Shown: positions 7,942 to 52,732, counted from the first letter of the stretch. The stretch is DNA of 64,000 nt from an uncultured Thermococci archaeon (GCA_964621955.1 CAZUMN010000002.1:4530-68529); one strand, 5' to 3'. Notes: a model not told the origin generated them from the sequence alone. Numbers and translations: made by a program.

Positions 7942-8595
7942 TTAGTCTATACATCTATTGAGAGCCTCGAAAGCAAGCACCATATCCTTCTCATCGACGA
8001 CAAATATAGTATCCATAAAACAGCTCATAGTTTCAATAACGTTTATCCCGACAGAGGAAAGATTTGATGATAGGTAGGACACAACTCCTGGTGTATCCCC
8101 AATGTCCTCGGGACTCTTAACAGATATTTCAACTAGATCTTTTGAAACTCTCAATACATTTTCTTTACCTATAAGATCTGTAACCTCCTCAAGATAATCT
8201 TCAAGTAAGATTAAGGTTATACCTTGGGAGCCTTGGATAATATTGATTAGATATCCTTCAGAAAGTGTCTTCTTTAGAACAGGCTCAAGTTTCAAGAAAA
8301 CATGCCATCCGGGCTTTAATGTTACAGTTGCGACTTTTGTCTTTATGTTGATCCTGCTTTTCTTTAGAATTAGCTTTATTTTTTTCTCAAGAAACTTTTT
8401 TTCTTTCTGCAGTTCTTCAGCATACCTTCTTGACGCTATAAGTACAGCAACCATGTTGTCTATTTTGTATTCGTCCATTATCATCCTTGAAAGAGCAGAA
8501 TAGTTGATTATTCCATACTTAAGACAGTCCATTATAGACGGGTGTGCACCTATGTATTCCCTAACTATCTCCGCTATACTTTTTTTGTCTGGCAC
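7942..8595 (-). CDS. ACT-domain-containing putative regulator of amino-acid metabolism (COG2150-like)
   Basis: GTG start. An N-terminal HTH-like segment is followed by C-terminal ACT-like repeats (GVVSYLSSNLSSVGINVIE). Confidence 0.5.
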   Translation of the reverse strand: MPDKKSIAEIVREYIGAHPSIMDCLKYGIINYSALSRMIMDEYKIDNMVAVLIASRRYAEELQKEKKFLEKKIKLILKKSRINIKTKVATVTLKPGWHVFLKLEPVLKKTLSEGYLINIIQGSQGITLILLEDYLEEVTDLIGKENVLRVSKDLVEISVKSPEDIGDTPGVVSYLSSNLSSVGINVIETMSCFMDTIFVVDEKDMVLAFEALNRCID

Positions 8596-8703
8596 AATTA
8601 TTATTTGTACGATACTATATTTAAATGTTCTGAATATACTAAGATTGACAACTTATGACAAAATACTTAAATCATGTGTATAATAACTATTTTAGATGTT
8701 TTT

Positions 8704-9051
8704 ATGTCCATAAAAAACCCAAAGACTCTCAGGGAAAAGACAAGATATGTCAGTTTTAAAATAGAGGGAGGGAAAGACTTTAAAAGAGAGGACCTAGTTA
8801 AAGCTATCTGGAATTCAGCCATTGATTTTTTAGGAGAGTTTGGCGCTTCTGAAATAGGTCTTTGGGTTAAGGAATATGACGATAGTAATAAGTGTGGCAT
8901 AATAGAAAGCAATATAAAATCATTACACAAAGCTATATTTATACTATCACTTACTAAATCTGTAGGTAAAGAAAAAGTTAATATACTGCCTCTTTGTGTA
9001 TCAGGGACTATAAAGGGGTTAGAAAAAAATATCAAGTCTAATGTTAATTAG
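8704..9051 (+). CDS. rnp2: RNase P protein component 2 (Pop5/Rpp14 homologue)
   Basis: PKTLREKTRYVSFKI...LGEFGASE...LCVSGTIKG resembles archaeal Pop5. The gene holds the canonical position upstream of psmA. The ATG at 8704 is preferred over 8674. Confidence 0.8.
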   Translation: MSIKNPKTLREKTRYVSFKIEGGKDFKREDLVKAIWNSAIDFLGEFGASEIGLWVKEYDDSNKCGIIESNIKSLHKAIFILSLTKSVGKEKVNILPLCVSGTIKGLEKNIKSNVN

Positions 9052-9068
9052 TTTATGGAGGTAAATAA

Positions 9069-9818
9069 ATGGCATTTGTTCCACCCGCATCTGGATATGA
9101 CCGGGCAATCACCGTTTTTAGTCCAGATGGAAGTTTGTATCAGGTTCAATACGCTGGCGAGGCTGTAAGAAGGGGAGCCACCGCTATAGGTATTAAATGT
9201 AATGAAGGAGTCGTCCTTTGTGTCGACAAGAGAATTCCTTCAAGGCTTGTTGAACCGGAATCATTTGAGAAGATATTTCAAATAGACGATCATCTTGCTG
9301 CAGCGACATCAGGAATAATAGCAGACGCAAGGATACTAGTCGATAGAGCTAGAATTGAAGCACAGATTCATACATTAAGCTATGATGAAAAGATGTCTGT
9401 CATGATGTTGGCAAAGAAGATCGGAGACTTAAAGCAGATGCACACACAGTATGGCGGATTAAGGCCATTTGGTGCTTCTTTGATTCTTGCAGGTATCAAT
9501 TCAGAAGGACCTCAGATATTTGTTACTGAGCCTTCAGGAGCGTATCTTGAATGGAAAGCAACAGCCATAGGCGCTGGAAGATCCGTTGCAATGGAGATAT
9601 TCGAAAAAGAATATTCCCCCGAAATATCAATTGAAGATGCAATTATACTTGCTTTGAGAGCCCTTAAAAAATCAATTGAGGGAGATTTAAGCAAGAGCAA
9701 TGTTGAAATGGCTGTAATAAGCATGGAAGATAAGAGATTTCAGAAAATGGATGAAGAGAAATTAAATCTCTATATAGAGAAAGTTAAAGCGATTAAGGAA
9801 GAGGAGGATAAGGAGTAG
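9069..9818 (+). CDS. psmA: Proteasome subunit alpha
   Basis: [21 protein letters not shown]-terminal signature; 249 aa. Confidence 0.95.
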
Positions 9819-20614: not shown

Positions 20615-21799
20615 TTGATTGGGGTTACTATAGTTAAATTCTTGACAGTCCATCAGAGTAAGATTAGGGCATACGCTATGTTGTTATTTTCTGAATTTAT
20701 TATTTTCATCTTTCTTATTTATTTTAATTTAAGTAGATTAGAGCTTGTTTTTCTAGGGTTGTGTTTCCTTTCTATTTTAGTTGGGTATTATGTAATGGCT
20801 GTTAAAATACTTTCAACGAAGGATCATAGGCATGTTCCAGAAATTACTAGGAAAAAAGGGGATAAAGGCAAAGGACATATCGCCATAATTTATTTTACAC
20901 ATGGGGAGCCTGAAGATTATAATCCAATAGGGTGGATTAATCAGTTTAGAGAGTTTGACGAGCAGAAGATTAAGTTTATCCCATTTTTGATTAGGCCAAT
21001 TTTTCTTTATATGTTAAGGAAAAAGTATATCCATGTTGGTTTTAGCCAGCATAAGAAAATGCACACAAAGATGGTGAAATCGCTTGAAGAGAGATTTAGA
21101 AAAGAAGGAGATAAGAAGACTAAATTTTACCTATCATTTTTAGAGGATGAGCCAAGGCCAGACGCTGCGGTTATCACTGCATTAAATGACGGAGCAAGTA
21201 GAATAATAGTAAGTGAGGTATTCTTAACTATTTCAAATCATACAGCTGAAGGCGAAGAGTTAGTTAGAAAAATTAATTTTGATGATTACGGAGTTTCAAT
21301 TGCATTTACAGGTCCACTGTGGGATTCAAGGATATTACAGAGTATGTTTGTTGAAAGAGTAAACAAACACATAGGGGAAACCGATAAGAAAAAAGTTGGA
21401 GTCTTACTTGTGGGGCATGGACAGCCGAAGGAGTGGGATATGGAATGGCCGACTGAAACAGAGCAGGAGATAAAATTTAGAAAAGATGTTTTAGAATTAT
21501 TTGTTAAAGATGGATATGACCGAAAGAATCTTGATCTTGCTTGGATGGAGTTTAGAGAGCCTTGCACATCAGAGGCTGTTCAAAAATTAGTACAAAATGG
21601 AGTAGAGAAGATATTTTACTTTTCAGCTGCAATTAGTGCCGATAGCATTCACAGCATGTGTGATCTGCCTGAACTTATTTCTAAGTGTGGCATACCCAAT
21701 AACATTGAAGTTATTAATCTTGGAGCTTGGAATGATGACCCGATTGTGATTGAGGCAATTATGGAGAAGATTGGTGGGGTTAGGTTTAAAATAATATGA
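20615..21799 (+). CDS. Class II chelatase / ferrochelatase-like protein with N-terminal membrane anchor
   Basis: IAIIYFTHGEPEDYNP...IPFLIRPIFLYMLRKKY...VGVLLVGHGQPKEW resemble ferrochelatase/CbiX motifs. TM helices lie at the N-terminus. The start is uncertain (TTG at 20615; an in-frame ATT at 20573 follows GAGGGGAT). Confidence 0.45.
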   Translation: MIGVTIVKFLTVHQSKIRAYAMLLFSEFIIFIFLIYFNLSRLELVFLGLCFLSILVGYYVMAVKILSTKDHRHVPEITRKKGDKGKGHIAIIYFTHGEPEDYNPIGWINQFREFDEQKIKFIPFLIRPIFLYMLRKKYIHVGFSQHKKMHTKMVKSLEERFRKEGDKKTKFYLSFLEDEPRPDAAVITALNDGASRIIVSEVFLTISNHTAEGEELVRKINFDDYGVSIAFTGPLWDSRILQSMFVERVNKHIGETDKKKVGVLLVGHGQPKEWDMEWPTETEQEIKFRKDVLELFVKDGYDRKNLDLAWMEFREPCTSEAVQKLVQNGVEKIFYFSAAISADSIHSMCDLPELISKCGIPNNIEVINLGAWNDDPIVIEAIMEKIGGVRFKII

Positions 21800-21825
21800 T
21801 ATTTCAATATATTTTCTTTTCATTT

Positions 21826-22803
21826 TTAATCCATTTTGACATAATTATCTAACTTGTAAAGAGGTTGATTACACTTGATCTTACTACAATAAATATGATC
21901 TGGTAATTTTATTGTTATTTTATTCCCAAAATCTGTATCTTTTACTGTAGTATATGTTTTTATATTTCCCTTTTCTACTTTAAAATCAATGGAATCATAG
22001 TTGTAATTCTCATCAAATATTATTATTTTTAAATAGTCTCCGATTTTTATAATTTTATTCTCGTGGCACCTAATTCCGATTACATTATTCTTGGGAAAAG
22101 AATTTATTATTCTACCTATACTTTTAGGTTCGTTTGTATCTTTAAACCAGTCTCTATACATTTTATTTACGGCAAAAGAATATCCTTTATTGTTTTTAAT
22201 AAACCCATCAGGAGTTAAGAACCTTAACGTACTAATTCCATACTTAGAATCTTTTAATAATTCATTCAAATTTTTGGCTCTACGAGATTCACTTATAAAA
22301 CCCCCATCACAAGTAAGAAAATAATCACATTTGCACATAATAGCAGATACCAGCATTAAGATATCTTTTCCACTTATTCTAGTTTTTCTAAATGCGTGTT
22401 CTACAGACTGAAAAAAATCAATACATTCTTTATCCATGCAATTGTAATTACTAAAAGTAAATTTACTAATTTCTTCTAAACAATTATCTAGCTCCCTTTC
22501 TATTTCTTTCATCAGGGAAGGATTTTTTTGTATATGATATGAATCTTTATTTTTAGAGAATAATCCCTCTTTAATCAATTCTTTGATTATAACTTCTGTT
22601 CTAATATATTCTAATATTTCCCATTGAACAAAATCTGATATATACATTTGTATATGCTCATGTTTAGAAATATCAATCAGAAATTCTTTAATTGGATTTG
22701 GCTGTTTTTTTTCAAGCGCTGAAATTATTATGTTAGTGTCTACAAATATTTTTAGATAAAGATCCTCTAAAGCTAATGTTTTATCAATCAAGTAATCACT
22801 CAA
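21826..22803 (-). CDS. PIN-domain nuclease with additional C-terminal beta-rich domain (candidate effector)
   Basis: PIN acidic signature: IFVDTNIIISA (D22), WEILEY (E62/E65), GKDILMLVSA (D147), YFLTCDGGF (D166). About 150 aa lie C-terminal to the PIN domain, with a beta-barrel-like pattern VIGIRCHENKIIKIGDYLKIIIF. The TTG start overlaps the ATPase stop by 8 nt. Confidence 0.65.
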   Translation of the reverse strand: MSDYLIDKTLALEDLYLKIFVDTNIIISALEKKQPNPIKEFLIDISKHEHIQMYISDFVQWEILEYIRTEVIIKELIKEGLFSKNKDSYHIQKNPSLMKEIERELDNCLEEISKFTFSNYNCMDKECIDFFQSVEHAFRKTRISGKDILMLVSAIMCKCDYFLTCDGGFISESRRAKNLNELLKDSKYGISTLRFLTPDGFIKNNKGYSFAVNKMYRDWFKDTNEPKSIGRIINSFPKNNVIGIRCHENKIIKIGDYLKIIIFDENYNYDSIDFKVEKGNIKTYTTVKDTDFGNKITIKLPDHIYCSKIKCNQPLYKLDNYVKMD

Positions 22804-24061
22804 GATTTTTTGGTAAATTTTCTTCTTTTATATATTCAGTAGGATATGACATTCTTTGTTCTTCAACAAGTCTGTGTGCAATTCTTATGAAACTTCTATA
22901 GTTACCCTTAGAAATAAATAAGATTTTCTTAATTAGGTCTTCAGTGAAAGGGAAATAGTCATCTTTATCTATAGCTTGAACTAAATAATTTTTGATTAGT
23001 TCCTTAGCTTTTTTTTCGTCTAATCTTTCTAATTCAATAGAGTATGTTGTTAATCTATCATACAATGGTACTGACTCTTCTTTAATTCTCTTAAGTGCAT
23101 CGCTAGTTAGGGATACTATTACGGCCCAATTACTCTCACTATTAATCAGAGTATTAAGAGTTAGTAAATAATTAGTTAGTTGTATTCCTTTTAATTTACT
23201 TACATCTTCAAATTCATCAATAAAGACATATAACATATCGTAATTATTTTTCTTTAAAATTTTGACTATACTTTTAAGAAATTGAACTTCTTTTTTTTCC
23301 AAATCACGACTATTAATATATCCTGCAAGGGCTTCCCAATTTAAAATTACTTTTTTATCTGGAAATATAAGATATAGATATCTATCTACTAGCACTTCAT
23401 CAGGAACTATTTCCTTTTTTATAATATCTCGACTATTTTCTTGAAGTTTTTTGAGATCTCCTCCAAGTTCGTTAAATTTATTTAAAAATTCTAAGGGATT
23501 AGAACGAATAGGCTCATCAAATAGTTCTTTCCAATCATTATTTTCGATATATTTGTACATTCCACTAATATATTCTTTTTTAAAATCTTCAATTTTTACC
23601 TTTTTTAAGGAAGTTATGATTATATTCCAAATATATTTTCTTAAAGAATCAAATTCAATCAGTTCTATTATTTTATGAATGACTTTTTGAGGGGATTCGT
23701 CTGGTCTGTCTATATAAACAGTTAAAGCTGAATATTCAATTACATCTGAGTTATTTAGACTATTTATTATATATTCAATATGTTTCATCGTATGAGTTTT
23801 TCCCATACCATAATCTCCAATAATTGTAAGCCCTGCATATTCTCCAAAAGATTCATCATTTCTTTTTAGATAAGTTGACATAATATATTTTTTTATTAAT
23901 TCATTTGTTATTTCATCTAAAGGGGGCATCTTAGGGTCTTTTGCAATTGCAGCAGGAGGAAAAGGATTTATTTTTAATCGATCATTTTTGTCAAATATTT
24001 CTTTTTCAATTTTCTTTATTTGTGATTCTAAAGTTTCAATTGAATTTTTAGTTTTTTTCAT
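22796..24061 (-). CDS. ORC/Cdc6-like AAA+ P-loop ATPase
   Basis: N-terminal NPFPP. Walker A GDYGMGKTH (nt 23795-23818). Walker B LYVFIDEFED. Sensor-2-like SKGNYRSFIRIAHRL. The ATG overlaps the upstream gene's stop by 14 nt. Confidence 0.75.
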   Translation of the reverse strand: MKKTKNSIETLESQIKKIEKEIFDKNDRLKINPFPPAAIAKDPKMPPLDEITNELIKKYIMSTYLKRNDESFGEYAGLTIIGDYGMGKTHTMKHIEYIINSLNNSDVIEYSALTVYIDRPDESPQKVIHKIIELIEFDSLRKYIWNIIITSLKKVKIEDFKKEYISGMYKYIENNDWKELFDEPIRSNPLEFLNKFNELGGDLKKLQENSRDIIKKEIVPDEVLVDRYLYLIFPDKKVILNWEALAGYINSRDLEKKEVQFLKSIVKILKKNNYDMLYVFIDEFEDVSKLKGIQLTNYLLTLNTLINSESNWAVIVSLTSDALKRIKEESVPLYDRLTTYSIELERLDEKKAKELIKNYLVQAIDKDDYFPFTEDLIKKILFISKGNYRSFIRIAHRLVEEQRMSYPTEYIKEENLPKNLE

Positions 24062-25157
24062 TATTATTCCCTTCTTTTTTAATAATAATATAGCTTCTAT
24101 AGAATCCTTCTAGTTTTATAAAGCTATTCTCATAATAATTAGGATTATATCTTGATTTTCTTATATTTGATCCATAAGTCATTACTTGTAAAGAAGCTCT
24201 TTCCAATGAAAAATTAGAAAAATTATCATTGTGTAATTTAATTATTAAATTCTTCATATCCTCTAAAGAGCAATAATACTTTCTTACTAAATAATATAAT
24301 AATTGGGGTATCCATATAATTTTCTTATTTTCTAAATCATTAAAAAAAATATCATAAATTGATTTCTTTAAATCTTCTAAATTAATGTCATTATATCCTG
24401 CTCTAATTGGGTAATACATAATCCATGTATTACCATCGAAACTATATTCTGGAAATATTGCTACACTGTCAATTAAACCTAATTCTTTAAACCATTGCGG
24501 TAAAATATACGTAACTAATCTTGTATAATCATTTGGTTTTTGGTATGGTATTCTCCATTTTTTAGAATCAATTTCTCGTATAATAATTTCTCTTGCTTTT
24601 TTTTTCGGTTCAATTTTTGAATTAATTAAAATTGGTTTAGAATCATTTTTAAAATCATTCTCCTCAAAACTATCTATTGTCGGATATTTTTCCCAATCAA
24701 GGAACCACCATAGAAATTCTTTTGCTTTCTTATAATCTAGTACTATCTTACGTAAAGCTTTTATTTCATTTTCTTTAAGATAAGGAGATTCAGAATTTGC
24801 CAAAAATTCTCTACCTAGATTTTCAGATATTATTATCTCTTTCTCAATATTATGGGAAATTAAGTCTGCATAGAAATATTTGTTTTCATATTTTATTAAT
24901 TTTAAATATCTCGCAGCATGAACATATTCTAATTTTAATCTATCTTTTACTTTAGAATTAGGATACACCCATTTCCTTTTAGGGGGGGGGATAATATTAT
25001 TGTCCATATATTGATATAATTCTTTTTCTGATATTCTAATTTTAAAAACACAATAAACAAAAATATCTCTTATTGTTCTAATATTATAAGCATTTAAGAA
25101 TCCCCATTTTTGTTCTTTGTCACATGAAAAAGGTAAAGAAGGTAAAGTGTTCTCCAT
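24048..25157 (-). CDS. Orphan protein of unknown function (369 aa), W/Y/K/N-rich
   Basis: ATG lies 2 nt after the MTase stop, with GAGG inside the MTase 3' end. I recognise no catalytic or nucleotide-binding motif. The gene contains a C9 tract at codons 57-60 (codon 57 contributes 1 nt; the three Pro codons are 58-60). Confidence 0.6.
   Translation of the reverse strand: MENTLPSLPFSCDKEQKWGFLNAYNIRTIRDIFVYCVFKIRISEKELYQYMDNNIIPPPKRKWVYPNSKVKDRLKLEYVHAARYLKLIKYENKYFYADLISHNIEKEIIISENLGREFLANSESPYLKENEIKALRKIVLDYKKAKEFLWWFLDWEKYPTIDSFEENDFKNDSKPILINSKIEPKKKAREIIIREIDSKKWRIPYQKPNDYTRLVTYILPQWFKELGLIDSVAIFPEYSFDGNTWIMYYPIRAGYNDINLEDLKKSIYDIFFNDLENKKIIWIPQLLYYLVRKYYCSLEDMKNLIIKLHNDNFSNFSLERASLQVMTYGSNIRKSRYNPNYYENSFIKLEGFYRSYIIIKKEGNNNEKN
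24982..24990 (-). repeat. G9 (coding-strand C9) homopolymer inside the orphan gene
   Basis: The plus strand reads a-ggggggggg-a. The coding strand reads atC CCC CCC CCt, encoding I-P-P-P. It sits in a gene that is otherwise roughly 20-25% GC. Confidence 0.9.
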
Positions 25158-25159
25158 AA

Positions 25160-26515
25160 CTATTTCCTCAAAATTAATAAACTTTCTCTTAATCTAATAG
25201 CATGTCTATATTTTAAAGAGTTCCATTTAGTTCCTCTTTCCCTTAAAGGTTTTATTGAATAGCTTGAAAATCCAAGCCCTAACGCAATTTCTGCTAAGTA
25301 AGTATCTGTTGGAATATGGACCCCATAGGGTGCAGAATCTCCAATTATTATAAATGATAAAGAATCTTTTTTAAGTATTCTAAATAATTCTTTAAAGACA
25401 TAGTACATATCTTTAAAATACAATAAAGTAAGATAATCAAAACTTTTTTTAGAAGTTTTTCTTTTTTCTATTTCTGACCTTATTTCAACACTTTTAGATA
25501 CTATTTCTTCACATATATTTGGGATATAATTGTACATTTCATTTCCTAATATTTCTTCATATTTAGATTTATTTAACTTACTATCATTATTGTAATATGT
25601 TGTTGAAGAAGTAACTGATACTTTTCTTATTTTTTCCGTTATTTCTCTACAATTTTGAGCGTATTTCCAAAAATATAAAAATACTTTCAAAGATTCCCCA
25701 TAATCAAAATTATTTAAATAAGGTGGCGAGGTAAAAATATAATCAACAAATTCTTTTCGGATATTAGTATTTTTACATCTACTATCATGTAAGAAAATAT
25801 TTCTGTTTTCATTTTTGTTAATATATTGGGATGATTTTAGCATATCTTCACATATCAAATTTATATTTTTTTGAAATTCATAAATTGGGTTCCTAGGAGT
25901 TTTAGTCTTTGTCCAAGATACATAGGGTACATTTATACTGACTGAAGCAGAATTAGTCAAACTTCTTGTTAAAGCCATAAACAATATGCCTCTTAAATAG
26001 TCATTTGTGCATGTTTGATTAATTATTTCTCGGATATATGTCAACTTCTTTAAATTATTTAATGGAAAACATTTTTTTAATATTGGGTTTTCATTGTCTA
26101 TCCTTTGTAAATCCCAATTTTTGGATACTTCGTTTATTATTCTCTTACTAAATTCTTCGATTTCATTTACATTATTTAAATAATTTAGAGAATTGACTTT
26201 GATATAACATATATCGTATAAAAATTTATTAATCTCGTTTCCCCAAACGTCAAATCCTAATTCTTTTCCAACAATAGCAGTAGTGCCTGAACCTATAAAA
26301 GGGTCAAATATTATTGAATCATTTTGCACATTAAAAAAATTTAAAGTTTCTTTAACAAACAAATTCGAAAATCCTGCTAAAAACGGGAACCATCTATGTA
26401 TTGGAGATTTATTATTGTCAAAATTTGTTGCAAATCTATTTAGATTTCCATTTTGATCTAAATATTTAGAATAATTACTTACATTAGTATCAATATCTAT
26501 CACTGGTCTTGACAT
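25160..26515 (-). CDS. Amino (N4-cytosine or N6-adenine) DNA methyltransferase, AdoMet motif first and then catalytic SPPY
   Basis: Motif I FDPFIGSGTTAIVG (aa 70-83; the core DPFIGSGTT, aa 71-79, is nt 26279-26305). Motif IV TSPPY (SPPY = aa 263-266, nt 25718-25729). About 185 aa lie between the two motifs. The N-terminal segment is IHRWFPFLAGFS. Confidence 0.8.
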   Translation of the reverse strand: MSRPVIDIDTNVSNYSKYLDQNGNLNRFATNFDNNKSPIHRWFPFLAGFSNLFVKETLNFFNVQNDSIIFDPFIGSGTTAIVGKELGFDVWGNEINKFLYDICYIKVNSLNYLNNVNEIEEFSKRIINEVSKNWDLQRIDNENPILKKCFPLNNLKKLTYIREIINQTCTNDYLRGILFMALTRSLTNSASVSINVPYVSWTKTKTPRNPIYEFQKNINLICEDMLKSSQYINKNENRNIFLHDSRCKNTNIRKEFVDYIFTSPPYLNNFDYGESLKVFLYFWKYAQNCREITEKIRKVSVTSSTTYYNNDSKLNKSKYEEILGNEMYNYIPNICEEIVSKSVEIRSEIEKRKTSKKSFDYLTLLYFKDMYYVFKELFRILKKDSLSFIIIGDSAPYGVHIPTDTYLAEIALGLGFSSYSIKPLRERGTKWNSLKYRHAIRLRESLLILRK

Positions 26516-26538
26516 TATGTTCTCATTGTTTTTTCTTT

Positions 26539-26546
26539 TTATATAA
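26539..26546 (-). promoter_or_regulatory. Candidate archaeal TATA box (TTATATAA) for the island operon
   Basis: TTATATAA spans -24 to -31 relative to the A of the MTase ATG (26515). No SD lies in between, which suggests a leaderless or very short-leader mRNA. Confidence 0.35.
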
Positions 26547-26822
26547 TTATTGATGGAATTTGTAATTATTAATCTTGAAAGATAATAAATAATAATTTCT
26601 TTTACATTAATTCGATAATAATGAAATAATTTATAATAATTTGTTAGTTATTTAGAAAAATATTAATTTAATATTCGCATCCTCTTTTAATTATCCGTAT
26701 ATTACCTACTCGATTTTTAAATATATTTTACCCACTAATATTTCATTTCGAATATTCTACTATCAATACCCATCTAGATAATAGTCGAAACTCTTTTATT
26801 GTTAATAAATATTAATTCAGAT

Positions 26823-48832: not shown

Positions 48833-50155
48833 TTACTTTTTTGTTTCTTTTTTGCTTTCTTTAGATTTGTCACTTTCTTTTCTAATAGAAGCCCTAACCA
48901 TCTGGATAACAGAGCTATTTATCTGGTATTTCCCCTTTTCACTTGTCAAAATACCCATTGCAACTAGCTCTTCCAGTTTAGTATACTGCTTTGTCACTGA
49001 CTCTTGGGTGTCCTTTGCAAGCTGGATGTATGTTACTGGTCCTCCGCCATACTTTTCAATTATTATTCTAACATCTTCCCTTAAATCTGAAGGAACTCTT
49101 CTGATGTATTCTTCAACTGATGATGGCCCAGTTAAAACCTTTGCAAGATACCTGTCATCTATAAATTCCACAAAGTTATCCCTTGTGGCTGTAAACAATG
49201 TTGTGTGGAGGAGCTTTAGCAGTTCCCTTGGATTTCCCTTTGCCATGCTGTTTGCAAGAACTATGGCGCTTTCCTCAAACGGGTAAAGTGGATTAATTAT
49301 TGATTTTCTCCTGTTGTACTCAAGTCTCTTCTGGACAAGTTTTATTGCCCTCTCATCAGAGAGAGGTTCTGAGAACAGTTCATTATGGAGTCTTGCTACA
49401 AAGGCAGGATTAATTTCCCTTATCCTCTCATAAGCATTATTGGTGCAGGCCATGATAAAGACGCTTGATTCAGGCATGTTGCTGATGAATTCCCTCAAGA
49501 ATTCAAAGAAAAGAATAAGGTCAGTATTTGAAGCCGTCAGGATGTTTTCCATTTCGTCAACTATGAGCGCAGACCTCTTGTATTCTCCTAAATAATCTAT
49601 TAACTGATTTCCAATGTCTTGGGAATTATAATTTGCCCTTGTAAGTTCAGAATCTTCGTATTCTTCTACAACGGGCGCAGCTTTTTCTCCTCTTGAGAAG
49701 AATCTCTTTATTTTCTGGAAAAATGAAAGGTTTTCTTCTTGATAGGGCTCTGCATAAGCTTCTCCCCCAAGCTCAGACTCTTCAGCAACTTCTTCAAGAG
49801 GTTGTTGGGCTTCATCTTCATAATCAGAAAAATATGAGAATATATCAAGTGTTGTTTTAATAATATCATTTGAGTCAATCTTTTGGTAGATTGACATTCC
49901 TCCGGACTCTTGTATGAGTTTATGGACTCCTTTTAATCTCTGAGTTTTTCCTGATCCCAAAGGCCCAACAAGTGAAAGTGCTATCCCTGAATTTTCTCCA
50001 ATTACATCAGAAAGAATATCTGCAATACGAGAATCTATCTCTTGAGAAACATGAATCTTTTCGATATCCCTTATAGCCTCAGATGATAGATCTGTAAAGG
50101 GGTTTTTTTCTAGTCCAAATCTCTCATATGAGGAAGAAACATCTATCTTAAACAT
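48833..50155 (-). CDS. ORC/Cdc6-like AAA+ ATPase with acidic insertion and C-terminal winged helix
   Basis: N-terminal NPFTD. Walker A GPLGSGKTQ. Walker B ALIVDEMEN. Sensor-2-like AKGNPRELLKLLH. C-terminal wH GGPVTYIQLAKDT...LEELVAMGIL. The motif order is the same as in the island ATPase. Confidence 0.65.
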   Translation of the reverse strand: MFKIDVSSSYERFGLEKNPFTDLSSEAIRDIEKIHVSQEIDSRIADILSDVIGENSGIALSLVGPLGSGKTQRLKGVHKLIQESGGMSIYQKIDSNDIIKTTLDIFSYFSDYEDEAQQPLEEVAEESELGGEAYAEPYQEENLSFFQKIKRFFSRGEKAAPVVEEYEDSELTRANYNSQDIGNQLIDYLGEYKRSALIVDEMENILTASNTDLILFFEFLREFISNMPESSVFIMACTNNAYERIREINPAFVARLHNELFSEPLSDERAIKLVQKRLEYNRRKSIINPLYPFEESAIVLANSMAKGNPRELLKLLHTTLFTATRDNFVEFIDDRYLAKVLTGPSSVEEYIRRVPSDLREDVRIIIEKYGGGPVTYIQLAKDTQESVTKQYTKLEELVAMGILTSEKGKYQINSSVIQMVRASIRKESDKSKESKKETKK

Positions 50156-50300
50156 AAGTATCCCATTATTACAGTTATTTATTAAAGATTACCATCTTTA
50201 TACATAAGTTTGATTTATATTAAAAAATAATAATGTAAAAAACTATTTAAAGATTTCGGTAATCGTCTTTTTCTCCTTTATCTAATAAATATTTCAGTTT

Positions 50301-50861
50301 ATGGAAAAAGTTATAAGTAATTTTATACTCTTTTTATTAATGGCTTCTATAGAAACCCTCTTATCTCAGTATTGGATGATAATATTTTCAGCATTAATTG
50401 TATTATTAGTGTTACTAATTTTCCTTGTTAGATTTATTTCCAAGAAGAAAAAGGGTCAATCGGGAATTCCTGAGCATAAAGCAAAAGAAAAAACATCTAT
50501 CTTTAACATTGGCAAAGAAAAGACATCTGAATCAGAGGTAAAAAAGGAAGAACCAATAACACAAAAATATGACGTATCTCCCATAAATATCCCAGAAGCA
50601 GTTGAAACACCAAAAGTTCAAGAGCGAAGAAAGATTAATACTTGGGCTGACTTTGTCATTGAAATCGATAATTTGACAAATAGTCTCGTAGACGCTAAAG
50701 CTCATGAATACTTCAAGATGAGCCAGATGTATCGGGATTTAACTAGATTCTATTTTGATAATATACAAAACCCCAACATTGGAAAAGCTGACATGGACGA
50801 CGCTTGGAAAAAACTTGAAGCGTGTTACAGCAGAATTCAAAAACTTTTAGAAAATATTTAG
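50301..50861 (+). CDS. Hypothetical membrane protein
   Basis: The N-terminal TM segment is MIIFSALIVLLVLLIFLV. No motif recognised. Confidence 0.45.
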   Translation: MEKVISNFILFLLMASIETLLSQYWMIIFSALIVLLVLLIFLVRFISKKKKGQSGIPEHKAKEKTSIFNIGKEKTSESEVKKEEPITQKYDVSPINIPEAVETPKVQERRKINTWADFVIEIDNLTNSLVDAKAHEYFKMSQMYRDLTRFYFDNIQNPNIGKADMDDAWKKLEACYSRIQKLLENI

Positions 50862-50869
50862 GTGTTTTA

Positions 50870-52732
50870 ATGAATAAAAAAATATTGGCAATTTTTTTGC
50901 TTAGCATACTATTCACTGGTTTGTTGCCAGTTTTATTATCACAAGAAGATGGAAAATCTATTACAATTAAGGTACCGGCAGTTAAAAGGACAGATGCTGG
51001 GCTAGAGGGTGCAGTTTTTGATGCCACAGTTCTAGTAAAACCTGGTACTGGAAGGGTCTTTGTTGATACCTGGCCACTTTCTGAACTTGATACACAGGCT
51101 TCTTGCAGATTTGCTTCTGTAGTTGCTTCAGACATACTAAAGGTACCACATTCAAAATACGATTATTTTTATACAATTAGGGCAGATTCACCCATAATTG
51201 GTGGTCCTTCGGCCGGAGCGGCACTTACTATAGCCACTATAGCCTCAATTAAAGGGCTTGATATAGATCCAGAGGTCATGATGACCGGTATGATCAATCC
51301 TGACGGTACTGTAGGCCCTGTTGGGGGTATATTGGAGAAAATAATGGGTGCAAATGCGAAAGGAATAAAGGTATTCCTTATACCAAGTGGCCAATCTGTC
51401 ATCCAAATAATTGAAGAGGATAAAATTGATACTGTTAACGTAATTGAGCATGCAAAGAGTCGTTGGGGGATTACTGTCATTGAAGTTGACGATGCAGTAG
51501 ATGCACTATGGTATTTTACAGGGTATAGGATAAAAGAGGATGAGCCTCCCGCTAACGTTGTTGTAAATACTGATTTTGTCAAATCACGAGCACTTTCTGA
51601 GTTTGTCGTGGTAGAGAAACTTTCTATGACTACAAGCCATAAACTAAATTCTGAAACTATAGGTTACAGAGAATATCAAACACTAAATGATTTCTTAACT
51701 CGGGCAAATTCAAATATGGAAAAAGCTAAAGAAAATCTTTCCGAAAAGAGATATTACAGTGCCATGAGCAATATCTTTAATGCTAAAATACAGTTGAACT
51801 ATATTAGCGACTCAATAGATGTTATGGTAAATAAGGATTCAACTATTGTCAAAAATAAGATTGAAGCAGCCCAAAAAGAATTAGAAGAAGCAAATCAACT
51901 AATAACAAATGAATCGGCAAATATCCGAGGTATTACTTCATTTGAATGTCTTGCGGCATCTGAAAAAAGAGCCATTGAAGCTGAGAATTTAATAGCAGAT
52001 GCTTGGAAAAATTTCTACAATCAAAAATATTACGATGCTATTTACTATGCAAACTTTGCCCAAGAAAGAGCAAAAACTGCAAAATTGTGGATGGATGTAA
52101 GCAAGGAAAATTCCAAAGGGGAAACTATAATTGACGAATCACATATAAAGTACAATGCAAGCCAGAGAATTGAGGACGCAAGACTAAGTCTTGTTTACGC
52201 ACAAACTTTAATTGGTCAAAATACATTGCTTACCCAAAGTGCTGAGTTACTCACAGCAGCTGAAAATGAATATGAAAAAGGAAAATACGCAGCCGCTATT
52301 TTTGATGCCATTGACAGCAAGGTGAGATCTAGTGTTTCAATTGAACTATGGTCTTCAGGAGAAGAAGTCATAAAAGAAAGACTCGAAAGGGCAAAACAAC
52401 AAGCTGGAGGAGCAATCTATCTTGCAAGAAAAGATGGTGGGGAGCCTTTAATGGCTGAAAGTTACTTTGAATATGCCTCTACATTTGAAGAATCTGATAA
52501 GATAGGCTCAATAATTCTTTATAAATACTCTAAAGGTGTGGCATTTGCACTTAGATTCTTAGAACCTCTAGAAGAAGCGTCTCCTCAACAAGAAGTACAA
52601 ATTGAAAAATCTTCAACTGTCACAACAACTAAATCCTATGCTTATGTGGGATACTTTATTGGGGGATTGTTAATAGGTTTAATAATTGGCGGGATAGCCA
52701 TATTTTATACAAAAAGAGGAATTTATAAATAA
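50870..52732 (+). CDS. Secreted/membrane-anchored S16 (Lon-type proteolytic domain) serine peptidase with large helical C-terminal region
   Basis: Signal peptide MNKKILAIFLLSILF. Lon_C-like IIGGPSAGAALTIATIASIKGLDIDPEVMMTGMINPDGTVGPVGGILEKIMGANAKGIKVFLIP. C-terminal TM segment YFIGGLLIGLIIGGIAIFY. The ATG at 50870 is preferred over the GTG at 50822. Confidence 0.7.
   Translation: MNKKILAIFLLSILFTGLLPVLLSQEDGKSITIKVPAVKRTDAGLEGAVFDATVLVKPGTGRVFVDTWPLSELDTQASCRFASVVASDILKVPHSKYDYFYTIRADSPIIGGPSAGAALTIATIASIKGLDIDPEVMMTGMINPDGTVGPVGGILEKIMGANAKGIKVFLIPSGQSVIQIIEEDKIDTVNVIEHAKSRWGITVIEVDDAVDALWYFTGYRIKEDEPPANVVVNTDFVKSRALSEFVVVEKLSMTTSHKLNSETIGYREYQTLNDFLTRANSNMEKAKENLSEKRYYSAMSNIFNAKIQLNYISDSIDVMVNKDSTIVKNKIEAAQKELEEANQLITNESANIRGITSFECLAASEKRAIEAENLIADAWKNFYNQKYYDAIYYANFAQERAKTAKLWMDVSKENSKGETIIDESHIKYNASQRIEDARLSLVYAQTLIGQNTLLTQSAELLTAAENEYEKGKYAAAIFDAIDSKVRSSVSIELWSSGEEVIKERLERAKQQAGGAIYLARKDGGEPLMAESYFEYASTFEESDKIGSIILYKYSKGVAFALRFLEPLEEASPQQEVQIEKSSTVTTTKSYAYVGYFIGGLLIGLIIGGIAIFYTKRGIYK

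Follow-up and report, generated by a model that had tools for sequence, protein, structure and literature searches.

The locus described here appears to be closest in logic to the BREX-related defence systems, especially MANTIS/Gao_RL. In MANTIS, an AAA+ ATPase and a small cofactor are needed to load a DNA methyltransferase (MTase), the complex triggers a nuclease, and the MTase supplies the site recognition for restriction (bioRxiv 10.64898/2026.09.23.753747). In a 2026 survey of bacteriophage exclusion (BREX) systems, BrxD is treated as a component of Type-2 BREX that pairs with the BrxHI helicase, and PIN domains are listed as occasional accessory RNases only, not as core components (PMC12839542). 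HEC-03 is a pair of an ATPase and a VapC-like PIN protein, both of which are needed for phage defence (bioRxiv 10.1101/2024.01.29.577857). The present locus is located in a 64,000-nt stretch of DNA, hereafter the window, from an uncultured Thermococci archaeon (GCA_964621955.1, CAZUMN010000002.1:4530-68529) and consists of four adjacent genes for an MTase, an orphan protein, an AAA+ ATPase and a PIN effector. It is regarded here, with moderate confidence, as a horizontally mobile, methylation-based defence cassette that is similar to restriction-modification (R-M) systems in logic and related to BREX through its ATPase; its function in defence is what we infer. The first-pass annotation of the window had put the genes forward as a candidate methylation-linked defence operon, and this candidacy is supported by their synteny in unrelated taxa, their mobility and the lack of a profile assignment to any named system.

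Gene layout, distribution and insertion of the cassette

Four minus-strand open reading frames (ORFs) with tightly spaced junctions, set in a compositionally foreign island amid housekeeping sequence, had been predicted for this locus. All four were recovered with the predicted positions and lengths (Table 1), and the junction sequences agree with the prediction: the MTase and orphan genes are separated by a 2-nt gap (TAG-TT-ATG), the orphan and ATPase genes overlap by 14 nt, and the ATPase and PIN genes overlap by 8 nt within cTTGAGTGA. Judged by these junctions, the four genes are tightly coupled into a single unit of transcription and translation, and they are probably co-translated. The exact start of the PIN gene is ambiguous because a second TTG, chosen by the database gene caller, is located four codons downstream and yields a 321-aa product. 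A TATA-like element in the upstream spacer is centred about 27 nt before the MTase ATG; it is possibly an archaeal promoter for a leaderless transcript, and in such AT-rich DNA the match could also be due to chance. The G+C content is 0.24-0.26 in each cassette gene, 0.19 in the upstream spacer and 0.38-0.39 in the flanks. The low-GC block thus spans about 5 kb at 25% G+C, compared to about 38% outside, with sharp edges near 21,800 and 26,800, and the genes around it are indeed housekeeping genes. ORFs of 325-451 codons at 25% G+C, each with dozens of homologues, are far beyond chance.

To characterize the cassette beyond the window, loci were fetched through homologues of the orphan protein and the ATPase, and the four window proteins were scored against 15 loci from unrelated taxa. 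The orphan-ATPase-PIN trio is present in the same order in every locus that is not cut by a contig end and is the constant core of the cassette. All four genes are found in 11 complete loci of the 15; in a further one (L010), the contig stops behind the MTase and orphan genes. A lack of synteny in other genomes, named earlier as an outcome that would speak against the operon, was therefore not observed. A cognate MTase is encoded in 12 of the 15 loci (36-51% identity), mostly directly upstream at 0-15 nt from the orphan gene, and this MTase family diverges roughly in step with the other cassette genes. In Emticicia (Bacteroidota), the MTase gene is convergent to the trio on the opposite strand, a modular arrangement of modification and restriction genes that is typical of R-M systems. 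The four-gene architecture is also kept in a divergent subfamily (L008 and L009) with an ATPase of 29% identity, an orphan protein recognisable by profile only (probability 97%) and a PIN protein as the fourth gene product (probability 97%). More distantly, locus L029 (ATPase 25% identical) contains an orphan-like gene upstream of the ATPase gene, and its third gene is cut by the contig end.

The named hosts include a Deltaproteobacterium, Omnitrophica, Nanoarchaeota, Desulfofervidus, Emticicia, Zixibacteria, Elusimicrobia and the methanogen of the window, in addition to many metagenomes. As judged by gene order and host range, the cassette moves as a unit between phyla and across the divide between archaea and bacteria. 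It is rare: a peptide-pattern scan of 185,579 species representatives gave two matches, a rarity that may be overstated because the patterns were narrow. The small size of the orphan, ATPase and PIN families (43, 83 and 32 clusters, respectively) is consistent with proteins that exist only as parts of the cassette.

The cassette is often found beside defence or mobility genes. Its neighbours include GmrSD, HEPN_AbiV, DUF2971, UvrD and an integrase in L007, a PglX-like MTase, a PLD-SNF2 helicase and a serine recombinase in L002, GmrSD_N, a DUF1156 MTase and an integrase in L003, EVE, RE_CfrBI/MTase and Mrr_N in L012, and HNH and HEPN in L013. Two related contigs carry a lone Cas1 gene immediately upstream of the cassette MTase gene (L005, 5572-6579; L014, 6413-7519); the 8-10 kb covered there contain no further cas genes. 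No match to the orphan or ATPase profiles was obtained among the 2.9 million viral contigs of IMG/VR, none to the ATPase in a phage collection, and none to the orphan protein in 72,556 plasmids.

The surroundings of two loci are recorded in their own right. In L012 (7891-14707), the trio is flanked upstream by a 298-aa EVE-domain protein and downstream by a convergent RE_CfrBI endonuclease and an N6_N4 MTase fused to HEAT repeats; phage capsid and cement genes are located a few kb away. In L015, a 277-aa protein (2059-2892) is encoded two genes upstream of the trio. Its N-terminus weakly resembles a PadR-type winged helix, and by eye the C-terminal half has the look of a class I S-adenosylmethionine-dependent methyltransferase, without a supporting Pfam MTase match.

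The window cassette is located between a CfbA-like gene and the methanogenesis marker 6/5/15/17/7 operon; an RPA gene is also among the housekeeping flanks. In the metagenomic relatives compared at this site, the 5-kb block of 25% G+C is absent. Two of them (L019 and L022) have an empty site with the flanking genes about 65 bp apart, and three (L020, L021 and L027) encode a UbiA-type prenyltransferase at the cassette position. A close relative with flanking proteins 93-99% identical to those of the window (L018) carries OsmC-like and UbiA genes there at a host-like G+C content of 0.34. The contig of a sibling strain (L017) ends 41 bp before the MTase start and has no bearing on insertion. Housekeeping-like conservation in close relatives, which had been named as a further possible objection to the operon, is thus not what these genomes contain, and the island is a strain-specific insertion. 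As a side observation, close relatives differ in what lies between the CfbA-like gene and methanogenesis marker 6: nothing, a UbiA gene, OsmC-like and UbiA genes, or the cassette. The island is bracketed by an imperfect 18-nt direct repeat (family D12; Table 1) that resembles the empty-site spacer of L019 and L022. It is possibly an insertion scar; because the DNA is AT-rich, this evidence is suggestive only. No tRNA gene or integrase was found at the island borders.

Table 1 Features of the cassette and its borders, numbered from the first nucleotide of the window
Feature	Position	Strand	Description	Source
DNA methyltransferase (MTase)	25160..26515	-	451 aa	ORF list
Orphan protein	24048..25157	-	369 aa	ORF list
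AAA+ ATPase	22796..24061	-	421 aa	ORF list
PIN effector	21826..22803	-	325 aa, TTG start (321 aa from alternative TTG)	ORF list
Upstream spacer of the operon	26516..26798	-	19% GC; holds TATA-like TTATATAAAAA	
Direct repeat, left copy	21798..21815		18 nt, imperfect, 16/18 matching	
Direct repeat, right copy	26712..26729		18 nt, partner of copy at 21798..21815	

The four cassette proteins

All motifs that the first-pass annotation quoted for the cassette proteins were recovered, and those with a catalytic role do not vary among homologues. The MTase matches PF01555 (4e-13) and, over its full length (residues 27-440), the REBASE-derived Type II model MTase_II of PADLOC (PDLC03306, 7.4e-43). Motif I (FDPFIGSGTT) is N-terminal and motif IV (TSPPY) follows a central segment, so by motif order (motif I, variable region, motif IV) the protein is permuted relative to the beta-class Pfam model. 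Motif IV is invariant as TSPPYLNN[FL]DYGE in eight cassette MTases. SPPY is typical of N4-cytosine MTases, which suggests N4-methylcytosine as the product; N6-methyladenine is less likely. Residues ~101-240, between the two motifs, are poorly conserved (pairwise identity 0.17-0.26 in the conservation profile) and form a putative target-recognition region. Because this segment is the sole strongly variable stretch of the whole cassette, the MTase probably supplies site recognition for the restriction arm.

The orphan protein had been described as a protein without any recognisable motif, and the searches bear this out. Its homologues form 43 clusters with 38-58% identity, none of them annotated. 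The window protein and all 42 family members scanned gave no Pfam, PADLOC or NCBIfam match, and the family profile matched no PDB sequence. The AlphaFold2 (AF2) model is confident (predicted local distance difference test, pLDDT, 90; predicted template modeling score, pTM, 0.88); Foldseek searches with this model against PDB and BFVD gave no match at E<=1e-3 and no resemblance to a nuclease fold. On these results, an assignment to a known family was rejected. The weak top matches are all winged-helix modules (PadR, Stn1, Nse/MAGE, Hel308, the FokI recognition domain and linker histone), and the sequence is evenly conserved along its length. We read the model as a new-fold protein of several winged-helix-like modules that is probably non-enzymatic, and propose a role as DNA-binding adaptor or ATPase co-factor. 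As a confidently foldable family without structural or sequence relatives, it is a candidate for a new DNA-binding or adaptor module.

For the ATPase, the earlier designation as ORC/Cdc6-like is in line with its motifs and matches. Invariant residues comprise Walker A (G85/G87/K88), Walker B (D282-E285), and R336 and R389 (arginine finger and sensor 2). The window protein gives sub-threshold matches to DnaA (Bac_DnaA), BrxC_BrxD and AAA_22. Its best PADLOC match is mad8 (8e-5, 20 bits); BrxD is matched at E=0.016. The majority of its 83 homologue clusters match PF10923 (BrxC_BrxD), and among 35 relatives PADLOC gave weak BrxD matches in 31 (best 6.5e-7), mad8 in 17 and weak BrxC matches in three. 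The best PDB match of the family profile is the AAA+ protein TnsC (1e-4), and the ATPase of L007 has a faint ORC-CDC6-like match. The C-terminal winged-helix domain of Orc1/Cdc6 is missing. Taken by these motifs and profile matches, the protein is a member of the BrxC/BrxD superfamily, namely a standalone AAA+ ATPase of the ORC/Cdc6 clade that is distantly BrxD- and mad8-like. Because the ATPase belongs to this superfamily, the cassette is BREX-related at the level of one component. Orthology to BrxD was rejected, as the NCBIfam equivalog NF033438 scores 12.9 bits (E=0.042) at a cut-off of 350 bits; the kinship is at the superfamily level only. Weak matches to HEC-02A were likewise dismissed: that protein is an ABC ATPase, and the P-loop common to both accounts for them.

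Two further ATPases are of interest beside that of the cassette. The window encodes a second AAA+ ATPase of 440 aa (48833-50155, minus strand) with host-like G+C content and an AAA_22 match (2.8e-6). From Walker B to the lid it is related to the cassette ATPase (hhalign probability 97.8%, E=6.6e-13), and its N-terminal region contains a similar KNPF motif. Its gene is divergent to those of a small membrane protein (50301-50861, plus strand) and a 636-aa membrane protein with a Lon_C (S16) protease domain (50822-52732, plus strand); an ORC-clade ATPase beside a Lon-like protein (48833-52732) recalls BrxC/BrxL in arrangement. The other ATPase, a BrxD-like 'BREX system ATP-binding' protein, is encoded on a Natronorubrum aibiense plasmid (L016; NZ_CP045489.1, 55400-72488; locus positions 7947-9098) and is 21% identical to the cassette ATPase over 91% of the latter. 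Around it are two tRNA-guanine-transglycosylase (DpdA-like) genes, a DUF6884 gene and a queuosine-precursor transporter gene, and the order of a DNA-modification enzyme, a 299-aa protein and the ATPase is that of the cassette. The 299-aa protein was rejected as an orphan homologue (probability 4.7%). This haloarchaeal BrxD-like ATPase in a 7-deazaguanine cluster hints that such ATPases may be general partners of DNA-modification enzymes.

Relatives of the PIN protein were collected by an exhaustive HMMER search, since a word-indexed search returned the query alone. It yielded 32 representatives among 1.84 billion proteins. PF01850 was matched in all 22 family members scanned, and residues D22, N24, E62, D147 and D166 are invariant, including all four acidic residues. 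The AF2 model (pLDDT 87) consists of an N-terminal domain (residues ~17-200) and an all-beta barrel (~230-318), in agreement with the earlier description of a PIN nuclease with an extra C-terminal domain. Foldseek matched the N-terminal domain to VapC, FitB and PcrIIC1, with template modeling (TM) scores of 0.6-0.75 on the target for VapC and FitB. Four conserved acidic residues on a modelled PIN alpha/beta fold place the effector in the PIN superfamily. The C-terminal domain matched EF-Tu domain II, the U32 C-terminal domain 4he6 (TM 0.75, root-mean-square deviation 2.5 Å) and the N-terminal barrel of F1-ATPase, and is thus modelled as an EF-Tu-domain-II-like β-barrel. Separately, a 483-aa protein (P0154) has four separate matches to barrel residues ~247-299, so the barrel also exists as a tandem-repeated independent module.

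Proposed mechanism and competing explanations

In the methylation-based defence favoured here, the MTase would mark a short host DNA motif as self and would also give site recognition to the restriction arm, like Mod, PglX and MtsC in their systems. The winged-helix orphan protein and the ATPase would together make up a DNA-bound, ATP-dependent switch for loading or regulating the MTase and for detecting unmethylated sites, as proposed by analogy with MtsA/MtsB of MANTIS and BrxC of BREX. On unmethylated invader DNA, the complex would license the PIN-barrel nuclease, the only nuclease of the cassette, which would act either by RNA cleavage and growth arrest, as its fold points to, or by DNA cleavage, as the logic of the system points to. 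The fold speaks for RNA, as it is related to VapC-type RNases and the barrel resembles domains that bind tRNA or are part of RNA-modifying enzymes; the logic of all known methylation-based systems points to DNA. The balance is nearly even and tilts slightly towards RNA. A more specific possibility, which remains rather doubtful, is that the cassette represents the first methylation-gated RNA-targeting defence: the orphan protein and the BrxD-like switch would read unmethylated DNA, and the barrel would direct the PIN domain to tRNA or rRNA, with growth arrest instead of DNA restriction. If so, the orphan protein would define a new fold family of DNA-methylation-state adaptors.

Several points weigh against a methylation-based defence. 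The window flanks are housekeeping genes rather than a defence island, two loci (L012 and L015) contain the trio without a cognate MTase, and the link between the ATPase and BrxD is sub-threshold (12.9 versus 350 bits for NF033438). Moreover, VapC-like PIN proteins are normally RNases, and we know of no methylation-based system with an RNase as primary effector. Of the two loci, L015 is an incomplete contig, and L012 has a different MTase adjoining, which might substitute for the absent cognate one.

The same two loci are the starting point for the best surviving alternative, which we consider unlikely: the trio would be a methylation-independent abortive-infection or toxin module that senses a phage protein or DNA structure, and the MTase a separate, co-transferred passenger such as an anti-restriction or orphan MTase. 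That the MTase gene can be located on the opposite strand, that an ATPase and a VapC-like PIN protein suffice for defence in HEC-03, and that the PIN fold is RNase-like would all fit such a module. However, an MTase of the same family accompanies the trio in 12 of 15 loci, usually within 0-15 nt of the orphan gene, and is also kept in the divergent subfamily; linkage this consistent across phyla is not expected of a passenger.

Less probable still, the cassette could be a selfish module for addiction or maintenance, or what remains of the replication-initiation genes of an integrated plasmid or virus, with an ORC-like ATPase, a winged-helix origin binder and an MTase. Selfish behaviour is known from R-M-like modules, the ATPase is an ORC/Cdc6-clade protein, archaeal mobile elements often carry Orc1/Cdc6 and MTase genes, and the cassette inserts alone, possibly flanked by direct repeats. 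Against this origin, genes for an integrase, Rep, capsid or partition are missing from the island, the viral, phage and (for the orphan protein) plasmid collections hold no copy, and the ATPase lacks the Orc1/Cdc6 winged-helix domain. The cassette always includes an intact nuclease, and some of its hosts are bacteria in which ORC-type initiators are not in use. A host function in epigenetics or RNA processing, outside genetic conflict and for example with a regulatory MTase and an RNA-maturation nuclease, would suit the housekeeping flanks (RPA, the CfbA-like gene and the methanogenesis marker operon) and the fact that PIN domains also act in RNA maturation, but is very improbable for a cassette of foreign composition and patchy, rare distribution (2 of 185,579 species representatives) that is missing in close relatives with flanks 93-99% identical at the protein level.

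A methylation-based defence, if active, would be among the smallest ATPase-dependent immune systems of its kind (about 4.7 kb, no helicase) and the first with a PIN nuclease as sole effector, and it would span the divide between archaea and bacteria. As such, the cassette offers a minimal model for a question shared by BREX and MANTIS, namely how ORC/Cdc6-type ATPases couple self-methylation to the restriction of non-self DNA.

Comparison with named systems

Profile scans assign the cassette to no named system: the orphan and PIN proteins have no PADLOC match, the ATPase is sub-threshold and the MTase is matched as generic Type II only. The statement of the first-pass annotation that the composition matches no named system thus holds in the Pfam, PADLOC and NCBIfam scans. 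In the literature, no description was found of a cassette that combines an MTase, a winged-helix protein, a BrxD-like ATPase and a PIN protein; a very recent naming is possible.

MANTIS/Gao_RL (BR type 2: MtsA, MtsB, MtsC, MtsD) shares with the cassette its four components, an ORC/Cdc6-clade AAA+ ATPase, an MTase of alpha-type order with a central recognition region, a nuclease effector and a small cofactor without known domain or structural homologue. The individual proteins differ. MtsA is a large multidomain DUF499 protein, whereas the cassette ATPase is a standalone, BrxD-like protein of 421 aa; MtsB belongs to DUF3870, whereas the orphan protein matches no Pfam family. Similarly, MtsC is a DPPY adenine MTase of ~900 aa compared to the SPPY-containing MTase of 451 aa, and MtsD is a PLD nuclease fused to an SF2 helicase, in contrast to a PIN domain with a beta-barrel and no helicase. 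Pfam detected no DUF499, DUF3870, PLD or helicase domain in the four cassette proteins and no match in 42 orphan relatives.

BREX, of which type 2/Pgl contains BrxD, is likewise based on self-marking by methylation, and the cassette ATPase belongs to the PF10923 superfamily. PglZ, BrxC, PglX, PglW and the BrxHI helicase are missing from the cassette; Pfam and PADLOC gave no PglZ- or PglX-type protein among its four products beyond a 23-bit local PglX match. The earlier claim of a difference from BREX therefore stands for the core genes, which are absent, but not for the ATPase, which falls into the BrxC/BrxD superfamily.

With Type II R-M systems, the cassette shares an MTase of the REBASE Type II family, the occurrence of the MTase and restriction module in either relative orientation, mobility and a location in defence islands. 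It differs in the absence of a PD-(D/E)xK, HNH, GIY-YIG, PLD or half-pipe endonuclease; the only nuclease domain is the VapC-like PIN domain. Its restriction arm would consist of three proteins, including an AAA+ ATPase and the VapC-like PIN protein, a fold that to our knowledge no restriction enzyme uses. From Type I and III R-M systems it is set apart by the lack of an SF2 helicase R/Res subunit, ResIII or HsdS domain (Pfam, PADLOC).

HEC-03 resembles the cassette in the pairing of an NTPase sensor with a VapC-like PIN effector. Its ATPase is, however, of the ABC type and not AAA+, it includes neither an MTase nor a winged-helix partner, and its models were matched by no member of the PIN or ATPase families. 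MADS (mad1-mad8) is a methylation-associated defence as well, and mad8 is the best PADLOC match of the window ATPase, but MADS is an eight-gene operon with mandatory mad6, mad7 and mad8, whereas the four-gene cassette has no mad6 or mad7 match; the marginal mad8 match of the ATPase is the only match to a mad model. VapBC differs in that a 421-aa ATPase gene and not a small antitoxin gene is located upstream of the PIN gene, and in that the PIN protein has 325 aa with a barrel compared to a toxin of ~130 aa. VAPB_antitox was matched in one of 22 PIN relatives, which is chance level. As possible identities, MADS, Ambrosia and the DefensePredictor systems DS-3 and DS-5 were rejected for their different compositions. 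Judged by its components and gene order, the cassette is best described as a candidate compact form of methylation-based, ORC/Cdc6-ATPase-dependent (BREX-related) defence, in which the orphan protein and the PIN-barrel effector are new or unassigned parts.

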